Source: Candidatus Woesearchaeota archaeon
Lineage (GTDB): Archaea; Nanobdellota; Nanobdellia; SCGC-AAA011-G17; UBA489
Reading direction: 5' to 3'
Length of the DNA stretch: 64,000 nt
Assembly (NCBI GenBank): GCA_018655015.1
Contig: JABIKK010000008.1
Location: 8,791 to 72,790, forward strand
A model generated the notes under the pieces. The model had not been told where the DNA came from and ran no database searches. It worked only from the letters and a program-made list of their open reading frames with translations. Below are positions 30,168-34,912 of the stretch, piece after piece. Each line of letters starts with the position of its first letter. Position 1 is the first letter of the stretch. A program made the translations under genes and the position numbers.

Positions 30168-31709
30168 TTGTTTATGTCTGAAGTGCCTAAGGAAATAAAG
30201 AAGATTTCTGATTTTGAGTGGGAGTTGCCTACAAGTTACAAGAAAGGAATGAATGTTCCGGCTAGAATTATTGCTAATGAATCTCTTTTGAAAGGGATGG
30301 ATAAGGGCGTTTTTGATCAAGTAACTAATATTGCTTGTTTACCTGGAATTCAGAAAAATGCTTTTTGTATGCCCGACGGTCATTGGGGTTATGGTTTCCC
30401 AATTGGCGGTGTTGCGGCGTTTGATGTTAATGAAGGAATAATTAGTCCTGGGGGAATTGGATTTGATATTAATTGTGGGATGAGATTAATTACAACTAAT
30501 TTAAGTTACAAAGAAGTTAAACCTCAGTTAAAGAAATTAGTCGATCATTTGTTCTTAACTGTCCCTTCTGGTGTTGGTTGTAAAGGTTTTTTGAAATTAA
30601 ATAATCAACAGTTTGATGACATCATGTTGGGCGGTGTTAAATGGTGCGTTGAAAATGGTTATGGTGTTGAAAGTGATATGTGGAACACTGAAGGTTATGG
30701 TTGTATTGAACAAGCGGATGTTGAAAAAGTTTCAGATAGAGCTAGAAAAAGAGGAATTAGTCAATTAGGGACATTAGGTTCTGGAAATCATTATTTAGAA
30801 ATACAACTAGCTAAGTCTGTAAATGTTTTTGATTCGGATGTTGCAAAAAAGTTTGGAATTATTGGGGATGATCAAGTTGTTATTATGGTTCATTGTGGAT
30901 CAAGAGGATTTGGACACCAGGTGGCTACAGATTATTTGAAAGTTTTTGATAAATCAATGGATAAGTTTGGGATAAAAATTAATGATAGGGAATTAGCTTG
31001 TGCCCCTTTTAATTCGGATGAAGGGCAGGATTACTACAAGGCAATGGCTTGCGCCTCAAATATGGCCTTTGCTAATAGACAAGTGATAACTCATAGGATT
31101 AGAGAAGCTTTTTCTAAAGTATTTAGTAAGAGTCAGGAACAGATGGATATGAATTTAGTCTATGATGTTGCGCATAATATTGCTAAAGTTGAAGAACATA
31201 AGATTGAGGGTAAGATGAAGAAAGTTGTTGTGCATAGAAAGGGTGCAACAAGAGCATTTCCTCCCAAACATAAAGAATTATGTCCTAAGTATAGGCCTGT
31301 TGGTCAACCAGTAATTTTGGGCGGAAGTATGGAGACTGGATCTCATTTGTTAGTTGGAACTCAAAAGGCAATGGATGTTACTTTTGGAAGTACAGCTCAT
31401 GGTTCTGGTAGAACAATGTCGAGAACTAAGGCTAAGAAAGAGTTTCAAGGAAAAGAATTACAAGAAAGAATGATGAAGAAAGGAATTTATGTTAGATCTT
31501 CAAGCATGCAAGGTTTGGCAGAAGAAGCTGGAAAGGCGTATAAAAATATTAATTCTGTCGTAGATGTTTTGAATGAGTATGGGATTGCAAAGAAAGTTGT
31601 TGGTTTTAACCCAATAGGGAATGTTAAAGGCCATGCAAGTTTATCCTACTTAAGTTTATTGCCTTTTTTTGCATTACTGTTTGTTTTATTAATGAACTTA
31701 GTTGTTTGA
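30168..31709 (+). CDS. rtcB: RtcB RNA 3'-phosphate ligase (tRNA-splicing ligase) with a ~25-aa hydrophobic C-terminal extension
   Basis: GHWGYGFPIGGV, NHY and HCGSRGFGHQV motifs. Likely true start is the ATG at 30174. The canonical C-terminus ...PIGNVKG ends at 31631, and the ORF runs on into the 3' end of the convergent homing-endonuclease gene. Confidence 0.9.
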   Translation: MFMSEVPKEIKKISDFEWELPTSYKKGMNVPARIIANESLLKGMDKGVFDQVTNIACLPGIQKNAFCMPDGHWGYGFPIGGVAAFDVNEGIISPGGIGFDINCGMRLITTNLSYKEVKPQLKKLVDHLFLTVPSGVGCKGFLKLNNQQFDDIMLGGVKWCVENGYGVESDMWNTEGYGCIEQADVEKVSDRARKRGISQLGTLGSGNHYLEIQLAKSVNVFDSDVAKKFGIIGDDQVVIMVHCGSRGFGHQVATDYLKVFDKSMDKFGIKINDRELACAPFNSDEGQDYYKAMACASNMAFANRQVITHRIREAFSKVFSKSQEQMDMNLVYDVAHNIAKVEEHKIEGKMKKVVVHRKGATRAFPPKHKELCPKYRPVGQPVILGGSMETGSHLLVGTQKAMDVTFGSTAHGSGRTMSRTKAKKEFQGKELQERMMKKGIYVRSSSMQGLAEEAGKAYKNINSVVDVLNEYGIAKKVVGFNPIGNVKGHASLSYLSLLPFFALLFVLLMNLVV

Positions 31710-32547
31710 CCGGTTTTTCAATGTCTTTGTATTTTACTTTTTTTGATTTGTTTATTTTATAAATAAGATTTACTTTTGCTATTTTTTCTTTGTGTCTAAT
31801 TGGTAAGATATTTAGAAGTTTGAGAACTTCGTTTTTTCTACAAATTTCAATGACATAATAATCCTTGTTGTATCGGAATATTTTCCCATTATGCGTACTT
31901 GTGTCTCCTTTTGAGTGATTTTTATGCATCGAAACGAAATATCCATTATCTTGTAAAATTTCTTTTATTTTGATTAATCTTTCAAGTTTTTGACTGAAAA
32001 GTCTAACTACAAACTGAAAATATTCTCCTGTTTTTCTCACCAAAATACTTCCATCTGCATCAATGTAACCCGCTAAAAAATGGAAGAAATTTTCTTTATC
32101 TATCCAATTTGGGATTCTATTTTCCTTTGAATTTATGAGGAAATTGAAGCTCTCTAAACAAATGTGTGACTGGAATCTATATTGTTCCTCTTTTTTCGTT
32201 AACTTGTAATTTGTTATGCCATATTCTTTGAACGATTTAAGTAAAAGGTCTCCAAATAAGGGATGTGTTGTGTGAGTAATTAATTTTAAAGTGTAGTTTG
32301 ATTTTTTTACAGGCGTTAAATCGCCCATCACTAGTCCAAACAGGTAAGCCTTTTCTTTAGATTCCACATTAAATTTCTTTTTTTCTTTAATGTGTCCCAT
32401 TGAGATGAGAGAATCTCTACTATTCCTGATTTTTATATTATTTTTTCCTAATGTTTTTCTTACAGTACTTCTATTTATTTCTAGATTCCTAGATATTTCT
32501 CTTATAGGCCTATTGTGGGCATATAACTTTATGATTGTTGATTCCAC
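31624..32547 (-). mobile_element. free-standing double-motif LAGLIDADG homing endonuclease gene
   Basis: N-terminal HTH-like region, motif 1 YLFGLVMGDL, motif 2 FLAGYIDADGSILV. It is antisense to its rtcB/archease neighbours, so it is not an in-frame intein. Confidence 0.75.
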
Positions 32548-32672
32548 ATATTGGTCTAGATAATAATGTTTATAATCCTCGACTGATTAGTTGGTAGGTA
32601 CGATAAATGCCAAAAATAAAGTCTCGTCGTAATCCTAAAATAGTTAAAAAGAAGAATATTGGGTTAATAATT

Positions 32673-33095
32673 ATGAGATCACATAAGTTTTTAGAGGATG
32701 TTGCTATTGCTGATGTTGCATTTGAAGCTAAAGGGGGTAATTTGAATGAAGTTTTTGAAGCATGTGGCGATGCTACCTTTGAGACCATTGCTGATTTGAA
32801 GACTATCGGAGATATTGAAACTTACAATTACGCTGCTGAGAGCGAAAATATTGAAGACTTACTTTATGAATTTTTAGAGGAAATAGTTTACCTTAAGGAT
32901 ACTGAATCTTTGATTTTTAAGAAATGTGAGGTGAAAATCTCTGGAGATTATAATATTAAGGCTAAATTTATTGGGGAAAAAATAGATCGAGAAAAACAAA
33001 CATTGAATACTGATGTGAAGGCAGTTACAATGCATATGTTTAGTTTAAAGAAGGAAAATGATGAATATATGGCCACAGTGGTACTTGATATTTAA
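32673..33095 (+). CDS. archease (RtcB activator)
   Basis: From the internal Met: MRSHKFLEDVAIADVAFEAKGGNLNEVFEA ... ATVVLDI matches the archease family (YxEHTADxxxxxxG...LEELF...V.DI). The ORF-track start at 32607 is probably too long. Confidence 0.85.
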   Translation: MRSHKFLEDVAIADVAFEAKGGNLNEVFEACGDATFETIADLKTIGDIETYNYAAESENIEDLLYEFLEEIVYLKDTESLIFKKCEVKISGDYNIKAKFIGEKIDREKQTLNTDVKAVTMHMFSLKKENDEYMATVVLDI

Positions 33096-33180: not shown

Positions 33181-33954
33181 ATGGCGGCAAAAAAAGCTAG
33201 GAAAAGAGCAAAAACAACAAAAAAGAGTCGAGCTAAGCCGAGGAATTCTAAGGCGACTAAAGCTAAAAAGACTGCGAAGGTTGCTAAGAAAACTCCTAAA
33301 GTTGAAAAGAAGAAAGAGGGTTTAGTTGTTAAATTTATTAGAAATTTTGTTAGGCGAATGATTGATAGCATGTTTGCTAAAAAGAAAAATATTAAACTAG
33401 GAATTTATGGGCCTCCTAATGCTGGTAAAACAACTTTAGCAAATCAAATTTGTAAAGACTGGCTTGGGGAGAGAATGGGTTCTGTTTCTAAAATTCCACA
33501 TGAAACTAGAAATGTTCAGGTTAAGGAACAAGTTACAATAAAATACAATGATAAGGAAATGGCCTTTAACATTGTTGATACTCCTGGAATTGCAACTAAG
33601 ATTGATTATGAAGATTTTATGTCTTACAAGATGAAAAGTAAACAAGCTAAAGATAGGGCTAAAGAAGCAACGAAGGGTGTTATTGAAGCAATAAAGTGGT
33701 TGGATGAAGTGGATGTGTGTTTAGTGGTATTAGATTCAACTGAAAATCCTTATTCACAAGTTAATGTAACTATAATAGGTAATCTTGCAGCAAGAGATAT
33801 TCCTGTTCTGATTGTTGCGAATAAAATTGATTTAAGGAAGGCAAATATTAGAAGAGTTGAAAATGCATTTCCACAATATGATGTTGTGGGTGTAAGTGCA
33901 GAAAAGGGAAAGAATATGGAGGAGTTTTATGAATCATTATTCAGGCTCATTTAA
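33181..33954 (+). CDS. small GTPase with a Lys-rich N-terminal tail
   Basis: G1 GPPNAGKTT, G3 DTPG, G4 NKID, G5 SAEKG. The first 45 aa are K/A-rich basic (AKKARKRAKTTKK...). Confidence 0.75.
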   Translation: MAAKKARKRAKTTKKSRAKPRNSKATKAKKTAKVAKKTPKVEKKKEGLVVKFIRNFVRRMIDSMFAKKKNIKLGIYGPPNAGKTTLANQICKDWLGERMGSVSKIPHETRNVQVKEQVTIKYNDKEMAFNIVDTPGIATKIDYEDFMSYKMKSKQAKDRAKEATKGVIEAIKWLDEVDVCLVVLDSTENPYSQVNVTIIGNLAARDIPVLIVANKIDLRKANIRRVENAFPQYDVVGVSAEKGKNMEEFYESLFRLI

Positions 33955-33967
33955 AGAGGTGATTTAG

Positions 33968-34450
33968 GTGTTAACGTTACAGTTTGTTCCGTATGGGGAG
34001 ATTGAGAATCTTTCTTCAAAAAATAGAATAGAAAAATTATTGGATATTGTTAAGCAAGATAAGATAGTTCTACTACAAGGTAGATTGAAACCTGAAGAAG
34101 AGACTATGTTGATCATGGAGACTATGGCTCAAATAAACAAGAAGTTTAGAGGTGTAGAGATTTGTACAATCTATCCTGAAGAGAATAATTTACAATTTTT
34201 TAATAAGATAAAAAAAGAAATGGTTAAGTTCTTGATTGGAAATAGGGATGGAGTTACTATAATCGGTCCATCTACTGTTGTTAAAGAAGTTAGAAGGAAT
34301 CCTAATAAGATTGAGTTGTTTACCTTGCCAGGTATGAAGGGTTTGAAGTCAAAATCTATTGCAAGAAGGAAAACAACTAAGAAAAAAATAGCATCTAGAA
34401 AGAGAACTACTAGGACAGTGAAGAGAACTGTTAAAAGGAGACGTAGATAA
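33968..34450 (+). CDS. conserved hypothetical protein with an Arg/Lys-rich C-terminal tail, likely co-operonic with the GTPase
   Basis: 4-nt intergenic gaps to both neighbours. Globular 120-aa domain plus tail KSKSIARRKTTKKKIASRKRTTRTVKRTVKRRRR. Confidence 0.5.
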   Translation: MLTLQFVPYGEIENLSSKNRIEKLLDIVKQDKIVLLQGRLKPEEETMLIMETMAQINKKFRGVEICTIYPEENNLQFFNKIKKEMVKFLIGNRDGVTIIGPSTVVKEVRRNPNKIELFTLPGMKGLKSKSIARRKTTKKKIASRKRTTRTVKRTVKRRRR

Positions 34451-34833
34451 TGCCTCACCAATGTGTAAGATGTTCTAAGATGTATGAAGATGGTTCTAAA
34501 GAAATTCTTACTGGTTGCTCTTGTGGTGGAAAATTCTTTTTCTTCATGAAAGAAAAATCTGTTGAAGATGCCAAAAAGATTACTACTCAATTAAGTACTG
34601 TTGACAAAGTTCAAATGGAAAAAGATGCCATGGAACTTGTTGGTGAAAAGAGCGATAATGAAAGTAAAAAAGATTTACCTGTTGTTTTAGACTTAGAATC
34701 AATTCGTGTTTTGAAGCCAGGACATTTTGAGATAGATTTAGTTGATTTGTTTAAGGGCGAACCTTTGGTCTATAAGTTATCTGATGGGAAGTATATTATT
34801 GATATTGCCTCTACATTCAAGAAAGAAGAATGA
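34450..34833 (+). CDS. zinc-ribbon protein (CxxC...CxCG), third gene of the GTPase cluster
   Basis: MPHQCVRCSKMYEDGSKEILTGCSCGG at the N-terminus. Start overlaps the previous stop. Confidence 0.5.
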   Translation: MPHQCVRCSKMYEDGSKEILTGCSCGGKFFFFMKEKSVEDAKKITTQLSTVDKVQMEKDAMELVGEKSDNESKKDLPVVLDLESIRVLKPGHFEIDLVDLFKGEPLVYKLSDGKYIIDIASTFKKEE

Positions 34834-34838
34834 TTGTA

Positions 34839-34912
34839 TGGGGACACCAGGATTTGAACCTGGATACGCCGCTCTGGAGGCGGCAACACTAACCGGGTTA
34901 TGCTATGTCCCC
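34839..34912 (-). tRNA. tRNA-Trp (anticodon CCA)
   Basis: Reverse complement GGGGACATAGCAT...GCCGC-CTCCAGA-GCGGC...CCAGGTTCAAATCCTGGTGTCCCCA. 7-bp acceptor stem, T-loop TTCAAAT, anticodon loop with CCA. 74 nt. Confidence 0.85.

Follow-up and report, generated by a model that had tools for sequence, protein, structure and literature searches.

The locus

The DNA analysed here, called the window in the following, is a stretch of 64,000 nucleotides (nt) from a metagenome-assembled genome (MAG) of Candidatus Woesearchaeota. The subject is a gene for a homing endonuclease of the LAGLIDADG type, a homing endonuclease gene (HEG), which lies between rtcB and archease and is encoded antisense to both. 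Its minus-strand open reading frame (ORF) starts with GTG, ends with TAA, and encodes 307 residues. A first-pass annotation, made from the same letters without any comparison to other genomes, had described a 307-residue gene with two LAGLIDADG motifs, and the ORF is found where it had placed it, with both motifs present. On the plus strand the gene is flanked by rtcB, which as an ORF spans 30168-31709 (Pfam RtcB, E=1e-170), and by archease (Pfam, E=3e-35). The three genes are arranged as follows.

30168-31631, plus strand: canonical rtcB coding sequence, ending with ...NPIGNVKG (G488); the Pfam RtcB match spans residues 51-488
31624-32547, minus strand: free-standing LAGLIDADG HEG, whose TAA stop codon is embedded in the rtcB codons V486/K487
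32673-33095, plus strand: archease, 140 residues from the ATG at 32673 (the ORF caller had placed the start at 32607)

Exactly the same arrangement, identical base for base, is present in six independent metagenome assemblies from different samples (L001-L005 and L059; labels of this type denote loci in other assemblies). The locus is therefore not an assembly artefact. The same six assemblies contradict the possibility, left open in the first-pass annotation, that a corrected assembly would bring the ORF in frame with rtcB. Considering the six assemblies, the homologs, and the selection acting on the sequence (see below), the HEG ORF is a real gene and not a chance ORF.

The 3' end of the HEG had also been reported to overlap the end of rtcB. 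This is true for the rtcB ORF, with which it shares 86 nt (31624-31709), but nearly all of this overlap is with a read-through tail of 25 codons (31632-31706). With the canonical rtcB the overlap amounts to 8 nt (31624-31631), which belong to the codons V486-K487-G488 and include the HEG stop codon.

Insertion at the stop/start overlap of rtcB and archease

The closest relatives without the HEG are L046/L047, whose RtcB is 91% identical to that of the window, and L051-L053 (80%). They share the synteny SOD-rtcB-archease-GTPase-OapB-OapC with the window, and in all of them the stop codon of rtcB overlaps the start codon of archease by 4 nt (GGATGA). The empty junction of these loci reads ...AATGTTAAAGGATGAAG..., also written ...AAAGGATGAAG... 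and ...GGGAATGTTAAAGGATGAAGTCTCATAAA..., and the sequence at the junction of L046 is GGGAATGTTAAAGGATGAAGTCTCATAAATT, also given as GTTTTAACCCCATTGGGAATGTTAAAGGATGAAGTCTCATAAATTTTTAGAAG. In the DNA comparison with the empty alleles the junction of the window becomes ...GGGAATGTTAAAGG[C...1042 bp...T]ATGAGATCACATAAG..., which delimits the insert.

31631-32672, no strand assigned: complete insert of 1042 bp with respect to the empty-site alleles, located between ...AATGTTAAAGG and the ATGA of archease

The cassette is thus inserted exactly at the rtcB/archease stop-start overlap GGATGA, and the comparison with HEG-minus alleles, which had been suggested as a check, gave a clear result in the closest HEG-less relatives. 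The GC content of the insert is 28.6% compared to 35.9% of the rtcB core.

An insert of about 1 kb, whose GC content is lower than that of its flanks and which has an 11-nt inverted repeat near its boundaries, might be regarded as an insertion sequence or transposon, or as the product of a chimeric assembly. The repeat is perfect (TTAACCCAATA / TATTGGGTTAA, window positions 31606-31616 and 32657-32667) and brackets the insert. However, it is not kept in L054 or L056, two further loci that contain the HEG, and is about what would be expected by chance. Conserved terminal inverted repeats or target-site duplications were not found among the relatives at the ends of the insert. In addition, a transposase domain is missing, and a search for further HEG copies within the window found none. 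Six independent assemblies of different samples with the same structure speak against a chimera. The probability that the insert is a transposable element or a chimera is therefore practically negligible.

Because the HEG is encoded on the strand opposite to both of its neighbours it cannot be an intein, and no Intein_splicing match was obtained. Alternatively, the rtcB-archease transcript could contain an intron of group I, of group II, or of the archaeal bulge-helix-bulge (BHB) type that includes the ORF. In favour of such an origin, inteins are found in the rtcB genes of relatives (at about residue 78 or at Cys103), as are candidate BHB mini-introns, and the best fold match of the protein is an intron-encoded archaeal enzyme. 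However, a search of the region 31300-32900 against Rfam revealed no group I or group II intron or other known RNA, neither at the gathering threshold nor at E<=1. A BHB intron was rejected because the duplex energy between the two junctions (-14.5) does not differ from that of shuffled sequences (-14.6 +/- 3.6), because the pairing is not conserved in L054/L056, and because the required central helix of 4 bp is impossible given the known exon ends (UAAA versus AUAA). The ORF is extremely unlikely to be part of an intein or intron, and the first-pass view of a free-standing HEG holds. Descent from the endonuclease of an RtcB intein was considered separately and rejected, the similarity being at the level of the motifs only (best BLASTP E=0.02 over 52 residues).

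The encoded protein

LAGLIDADG endonucleases cleave DNA site-specifically and leave 3' overhangs of 4 nt. The respective motifs and an additional DNA-binding domain are located in the HEG as follows.

32317-32346, minus strand: LAGLIDADG motif 1, YLFGLVMGDL, with G75 and D76 invariant
32044-32079, minus strand: LAGLIDADG motif 2, FLAGYIDADGSI, with G160, D163, D165, and G166 invariant
32398-32547, minus strand: N-terminal helix-turn-helix (HTH), DNA-binding domain, residues about 1-50

The protein matches the Pfam family LAGLIDADG_3 with 28.6 bits compared to a cutoff of 22.5, and a profile built from 30 family members matches the chains of I-CreI, I-AniI, and I-DmoI. In the alignment of the 30 family members, which are 36-88% identical, the acids at the catalytic positions, D76 and D165, are invariant. 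The AlphaFold2 model, calculated with the family alignment (pLDDT 92.2, pTM 0.82), consists of an N-terminal three-helix bundle, two domains of the alpha-beta-beta-alpha-beta-beta type each opening with a motif helix, and two C-terminal helices. The first motif helix comprises residues 63-76 and is followed by four strands, and the second comprises residues 154-165 and is followed by strands as well. Searching the PDB with Foldseek resulted in only LAGLIDADG enzymes at a probability of 1.00. The best match is the archaeal intron-encoded I-Tsp061I (2dch, E=6e-9), and bI3 maturase, I-AniI (1p8k), E-DreI, PI-SceI, I-DmoI, and I-OnuI are among the others. The LAGLIDADG identity, for which the first-pass annotation had pointed to profile searches, is accordingly borne out by profile, fold, and the invariant catalytic aspartates.

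An HTH domain at the N-terminus had been proposed as worth looking for, and it is present. The sequence support is weak, with Pfam HTH_28 and HTH_23 matching residues 5-33 below the cutoff. In contrast, the three-helix bundle is modelled confidently (helices 2-10, 15-22, and 26-35, pLDDT 90-96). The N-terminal part of the family profile matches the HTH of gamma-delta/Tn3 resolvase and of Sleeping Beauty, and homologs of roughly 360 residues contain an additional HTH upstream at the N-terminus, as seen in the alignment. The domesticated LAGLIDADG regulator WhiA has lost its catalytic residues and its HTH is located at the C-terminus (PMC3384342). Because D76 and D165 are kept and the HTH is N-terminal, the HEG protein looks like an active nuclease and not like a WhiA-type regulator.

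A clade of homologs at the rtcB terminus

Protein searches identified 47 relatives with 39-88% identity (E=1e-47 to 1e-195), all from DPANN-type archaeal MAGs or metagenomes. Their loci were retrieved from GTDB genomes and JGI metagenomes. A profile search of 1.84 billion representatives resulted in 154 proteins at E<=1e-30, a number that rose to 892 at E<=1e-10. All members with at least about 36% identity and enough flanking DNA adjoin the 3' end of rtcB, and none was found without rtcB. At about 20 distinct loci of Woesearchaeota and other DPANN archaea (the window, L054, L056, L006-L009, L011-L017, L060, L062-L064, L067, and L068), the homolog is 36-88% identical, convergent to rtcB, and abuts or overlaps its 3' end. 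In L018 and L066 the homolog is located directly downstream of rtcB in the same orientation, and L069 and L079 have HEG fragments next to rtcB.

The gene on the far side of the HEG differs between the loci and may be archease, a ZIP transporter, a GTPase, an aldolase, or a phosphorylase. In some lineages archease is located upstream of rtcB and the HEG still abuts rtcB. The left boundary of the element is identical everywhere, immediately after the last Gly codon of rtcB. Since the far-side neighbour varies while the rtcB 3' end is constant, the partner of the HEG is the rtcB terminus and not the gap between rtcB and archease. The original description of a gene wedged between rtcB and archease is thus correct for the window, but it does not extend to the family, in several lineages of which archease is found elsewhere.

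More distant HTH-LAGLIDADG relatives (25-32% identity) occur in other contexts, namely upstream of a DUF763 gene and inside an intein of a Hef helicase. Stand-alone genes with 25-30% identity are present at L020:4986-5873, L075:3258-4415, L078:3486-4373, and L019:1927-3219. Those directly upstream of the DUF763 gene are found on Aenigmatarchaeota-type contigs, and a version from Anaerolineae contains several HTH repeats. The wider HTH-LAGLIDADG family may therefore include other clades of gene-specific free-standing HEGs.

Effects of the insertion on rtcB and archease

The insertion alters the end of rtcB and separates it from archease, and it contributes sequences that resemble expression signals.

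31632-31709, plus strand: RtcB read-through tail, HASLSYLSLLPFFALLFVLLMNLVV plus TGA, antisense to the last helix of the HEG
32569-32575, minus strand: TTTATAA box, shared without change by the window, L054, and L056, its centre about 25 nt before the HEG GTG
32628-32672, plus strand: conserved 45 nt at the right end of the insert, containing TTAAAAA (32644-32650), whose centre is about 26 nt ahead of the archease ATG

Because the insert removed the native TGA of rtcB, RtcB of the window is extended by a hydrophobic tail of 25 residues. Of the 120 nearest RtcB proteins, about 113 end at, or within one residue of, the canonical ...KG, and seven (about 6%) carry the tail. Most HEG-containing loci encode a hydrophobic RtcB tail of 22-26 residues opening with x-x-(S/N)-(L/F). 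The C-terminal helix of the HEG contains a conserved Val-Lys; if its Val codon is GTY, the rtcB frame has a stop codon (TGA or TAA) there. The similar length of the tails across the loci is therefore caused by the fixed relation of the HEG frame to the rtcB frame.

As judged from the sequences of both allele types, the insertion abolishes the coupling between the translation of rtcB and that of archease. Archease most likely starts at ATG 32673 and not at ATG 32607. The in-frame extension to the latter is not conserved as an ORF in L054/L056, and archease has a length of 140-143 residues in L046, L051, L054, and L056. Parts of the 125-bp 5' region of the insert are conserved between the window, L054, and L056. 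Within it, the TTTATAA box is a candidate archaeal TATA box, whose distance to the GTG would fit a leaderless HEG mRNA. At the right end, 38 of the 45 nt are identical in these three loci while their synonymous sites differ by 40-70%, and the region around TTAAAAA may be an outward promoter that restores the expression of archease.

Patchy occurrence, decay, and replacement of the HEG

In a neighbour-joining tree of RtcB the empty locus L046 groups with the HEG-containing L056, and this pair groups with the pair of L054 and the window, which both contain the HEG. L048 branches next, followed by the group of L051, which is empty, and L057, which retains a scar. Empty, HEG-containing, and other states are thus interleaved. 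A deletion is unlikely to recreate a pristine GGATGA, and empty sites among occupied ones therefore imply either site-specific gain or recombinational replacement of the allele.

Some copies are degenerate. The homolog of L018 ends before motif 2, that of L066 lacks the C-terminal approximately 70 residues, and in L069 a fragment of 127 residues is kept between rtcB and archease. In L057 and L058 (RtcB 78% identical), about 84 nt of the HEG 3' end survive, which still encode the RtcB tail.

In the latter two loci, an antisense gene of 394 and 439 residues, respectively, is present at the rtcB/archease site in place of the HEG (L057:7530-8714 and L058:7530-8849, minus strand). It encodes ROS/MucR-like zinc fingers, KNPDL-type repeats, and a C-terminal DUF559 (Vsr-like) nuclease domain. 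We considered whether this might be a second widespread nuclease family targeting rtcB, but the gene is an orphan with two clusters only, both from the L057/L058 lineage. Yet another ORF is located between rtcB and archease in L048 (L048:7495-8049), L049, and L050, whose RtcB is 86% identical. It has 184 residues, is encoded in sense direction, and is unrelated to the HEG. It has no match in Pfam or NCBIfam, and represents a third kind of occupant of the rtcB-archease gap.

Among the window, L054, and L056 the ratio of nonsynonymous to synonymous substitutions (dN/dS) of the HEG is 0.11-0.17, compared to 0.05-0.11 for the neighbouring housekeeping genes. Judging from these ratios, the intact HEG is under purifying selection. 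This is difficult to reconcile with a stranded relic, that is an element that was inserted once by an ancient homing or insertion event, has become immobile, and now persists by chance while it decays. The decaying copies in L018, L066, and L069 would agree with such a scenario, and the comparisons of HEG and RtcB divergence revealed no direct case of transfer. However, next to them there are the intact ORFs with their low dN/dS, and the active-site residues are invariant across about 30 lineages. Because the ORF is intact down to 36% identity, an unselected relic is very unlikely.

A selfish cassette or a resident gene

We regard it as fairly likely that the insert is a selfish cassette with a free-standing HEG that targets the rtcB terminus, where the enzyme would cleave and by which the cassette would still be mobile. 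The stages of a HEG life cycle are seen in the clade: some genes are intact, others are truncated or reduced to fragments, some sites are empty, and in one lineage another nuclease gene has taken the place of the HEG. The cassette would comprise the gene of a LAGLIDADG endonuclease, whose two domains lie on a single chain behind an N-terminal HTH, and about 125 bp of 5' sequence with its own promoter. In HEG-less chromosomes of related archaea the enzyme would recognise the uninterrupted rtcB 3' end and junction and introduce a double-strand break. Homologous repair, for which rtcB and the downstream gene could provide the homology arms, would then copy the cassette into the break. As the insertion splits the target, an occupied chromosome would be immune to its own enzyme. 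The TATA-like boxes in the 5' region of the cassette might serve as promoters for a leaderless HEG mRNA on one side and for archease on the other.

Several observations weigh against this interpretation. Pairwise HEG identity correlates strongly with pairwise RtcB identity (r=0.79, Mantel p=2e-4; r=0.67 if the close trio is left out), and the HEG tree agrees with the RtcB tree within the clade of the window. Therefore, much of the history of the HEG could be vertical. Such a congruence could be expected from homing among close relatives, but equally from long vertical residence. There are outliers, like L006 and L012, whose RtcB proteins are 94% identical but whose HEGs are only 65% identical. 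A co-conversion tract, which would appear as a drop in the proportion of synonymous differences (pS), was not found at the 3' end of rtcB, where synonymous sites are near saturation. The pS of the HEG (0.38-0.46) is lower than that of the flanking genes (0.44-0.72), but was rejected as proof of recent transfer because the effect is small and could reflect a stronger AT bias. Among 2.9 million viral contigs no relative was found that could indicate a vector. Purifying selection as strong as in housekeeping genes would fit a host-beneficial role as well. Finally, cleavage and homing are putative, and the target site is deduced from the geometry of the insertion only.

Part of these observations would be explained if the HTH-LAGLIDADG protein were a domesticated resident that serves the host and is inherited vertically together with rtcB. 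It could act as a DNA-binding regulator of rtcB and archease, or the convergent antisense transcription over the rtcB 3' end could be the relevant function. Besides the correlated divergence of HEG and RtcB and the dN/dS close to that of the housekeeping neighbours, the position and the convergent overlap, which are kept down to 36% HEG identity, favour this explanation, and WhiA and HO are precedents for LAGLIDADG domestication (PMC3384342). However, the gene is absent in most close relatives, pristine empty sites are found at RtcB identities of 91% and 80%, and the tail is present in about 6% of the RtcB proteins. Truncated copies and fragments exist, and an unrelated nuclease gene has replaced the HEG. 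Furthermore, the insertion harms the arrangement of the host genes as the stop codon is lost and the coupling broken. Both catalytic aspartates are invariant in the HEG family, whereas WhiA has lost them and has a C-terminal HTH (PMC3384342). Loss of the acids, a C-terminal HTH, and universal presence in the clade, as known from WhiA, are all not observed for the HEG. Domestication is therefore rather unlikely. It is a doubtful variant that the HEG is a long-term resident which co-diverged with rtcB, was kept because it rewired the RNA-ligase operon, and is in the process of being domesticated as a regulator of RNA repair and tRNA splicing in DPANN archaea. If this were true, the rewiring would happen through the RtcB tail, which possibly anchors the protein to membranes, through the own promoter of archease, and through antisense transcription into the rtcB 3' end.

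Neighbouring genes and other insertions in relatives

Genes for an OapA-like GTPase, OapB, and OapC (Pfam 'origin-associated proteins') follow directly after archease (window 33181-34912), and next is a tRNA-Trp gene. The synteny of this cluster of GTPase, OapB, OapC, and tRNA-Trp extends to all close relatives, and a replication origin may lie close to it. In L007 (1035-3101), the OapA-like GTPase has 688 residues compared to 257 residues elsewhere. The difference is an insertion of about 1.4 kb near residues 81-83, which is probably an intein. The rtcB of L007 lacks residues 425-463 and its frame is changed.

The rtcB genes of L063, L060/L061, L017, and L015 contain small inserts, which break the reading frame and contain stop codons. 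Their length is about 31-33 nt, with 29-36 nt separating the tblastn matches on either side.

L063, 4433-4571: rtcB mini-inserts, rtcB on the minus strand
L060, 5625-5657 (the same in L061): rtcB mini-insert, rtcB on the minus strand
L017, 7048-7084: rtcB mini-insert, rtcB on the minus strand
L015, 7074-7107: rtcB mini-insert, rtcB on the minus strand

They are located at two sites, after about codon 75 (HWGY-GFP) and after codon 100 (GIGFD-INCG), just before the active-site Cys. In minimum free energy folds all five mini-inserts form a helix, a 3-nt bulge, a 4-bp helix, a 2-3-nt bulge, and a further helix. In the three cases worked out by hand (both sites of L063 and site 1 of L060), the frame is restored exactly if the RNA is cut behind the second bulge nucleotide and before the third. 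A compensatory change from A-U to G-C is found in the inner helix between L063 and L060. The mini-inserts are candidate BHB mRNA introns in the gene of the very ligase that would join its own exons. A literature search did not return a description of a BHB intron in rtcB, and among introns of archaeal protein-coding genes it returned only the case of cbf5. These mini-introns are possibly of greater interest than the HEG itself.

Inteins of about 500 residues are present in rtcB of L056 (6839-9883), L009 (5830-8889), and L011 (5815-8796) at Cys103, and of L013 (2495-5455) at about residue 78. The intein sites almost coincide with the two mini-intron sites. The rtcB of the window has neither. 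The rtcB gene of DPANN archaea, with two intein sites, two mini-intron sites, and the HEG at its terminus, appears to be a hotspot of selfish elements.

Comparison with known systems

In mechanism and structure the HEG is an ordinary LAGLIDADG homing endonuclease in its free-standing form. I-Tsp061I, I-DmoI, and I-AniI have the same fold as the HEG protein, a LAGLIDADG monomer of two domains in which each motif ends with one catalytic acid. These enzymes are encoded inside rRNA introns or group I introns and do not have an HTH. In contrast, the HEG is free-standing, has one or two HTHs at the N-terminus and two additional C-terminal helices, is located at the end of a protein-coding gene, and shares only 15-18% identity with them. 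The RtcB inteins of L056, L009, L011, and L013 are, like the HEG, LAGLIDADG-bearing selfish elements in the same host gene. Unlike the HEG they are inserted in frame and spliced at the protein level, and their endonuclease domains show no specific relationship to it.

HO retains remnants of the intein from which it derives. HO and WhiA resemble the HEG in combining a LAGLIDADG core with an additional DNA-binding domain in a stand-alone gene (PMC3384342). In the HEG, the catalytic aspartates are invariant, the HTH is N-terminal, intein remnants are absent, and close relatives can dispense with the gene.

Literature searches did not find a paper linking rtcB, archease, and homing endonucleases, and the papers on DPANN archaea and LAGLIDADG proteins that they returned concern insertions in rRNA genes. 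A clade of HTH-tethered, free-standing LAGLIDADG genes in archaeal chromosomes that is bound to the terminus of one protein-coding gene appears to be undescribed, and so do the insertion exactly at a stop/start overlap and the resulting read-through tail of RtcB. The locus provides a clean case of a free-standing LAGLIDADG HEG in archaeal chromosomes, in which one site can be compared in its occupied, empty, decayed, and replaced states. DPANN archaea rarely offer such population-level evidence. For biochemistry and engineering, the family represents HTH-tethered meganucleases with a predictable target of roughly 20 bp at the rtcB terminus.

Free-standing homing endonucleases are known from fungal mitochondria, from phage T4, where they belong to other nuclease families, and as HO from yeast. 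In fungal mitochondria, free-standing LAGLIDADG and GIY-YIG ORFs are found beside, or fused to, the 3' ends of atp6, nad, and cox genes, and these HEGs also change the C-terminus of the upstream gene. The mitochondrial HEGs and the seg and mob genes of phage T4 are nuclease genes with their own expression signals that are located between conserved genes and are present in some relatives and absent in others. The HEG described here differs from these cases by its host, a DPANN chromosome, by its convergent orientation with antisense overlap, and by its target, a 4-nt stop/start overlap within an operon. Its clade has, in addition, been faithful to the terminus of one gene across phylum-level diversity. 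In this way a putatively selfish insert has remodelled an essential RNA-ligase operon, adding a tail to RtcB and uncoupling archease from it.

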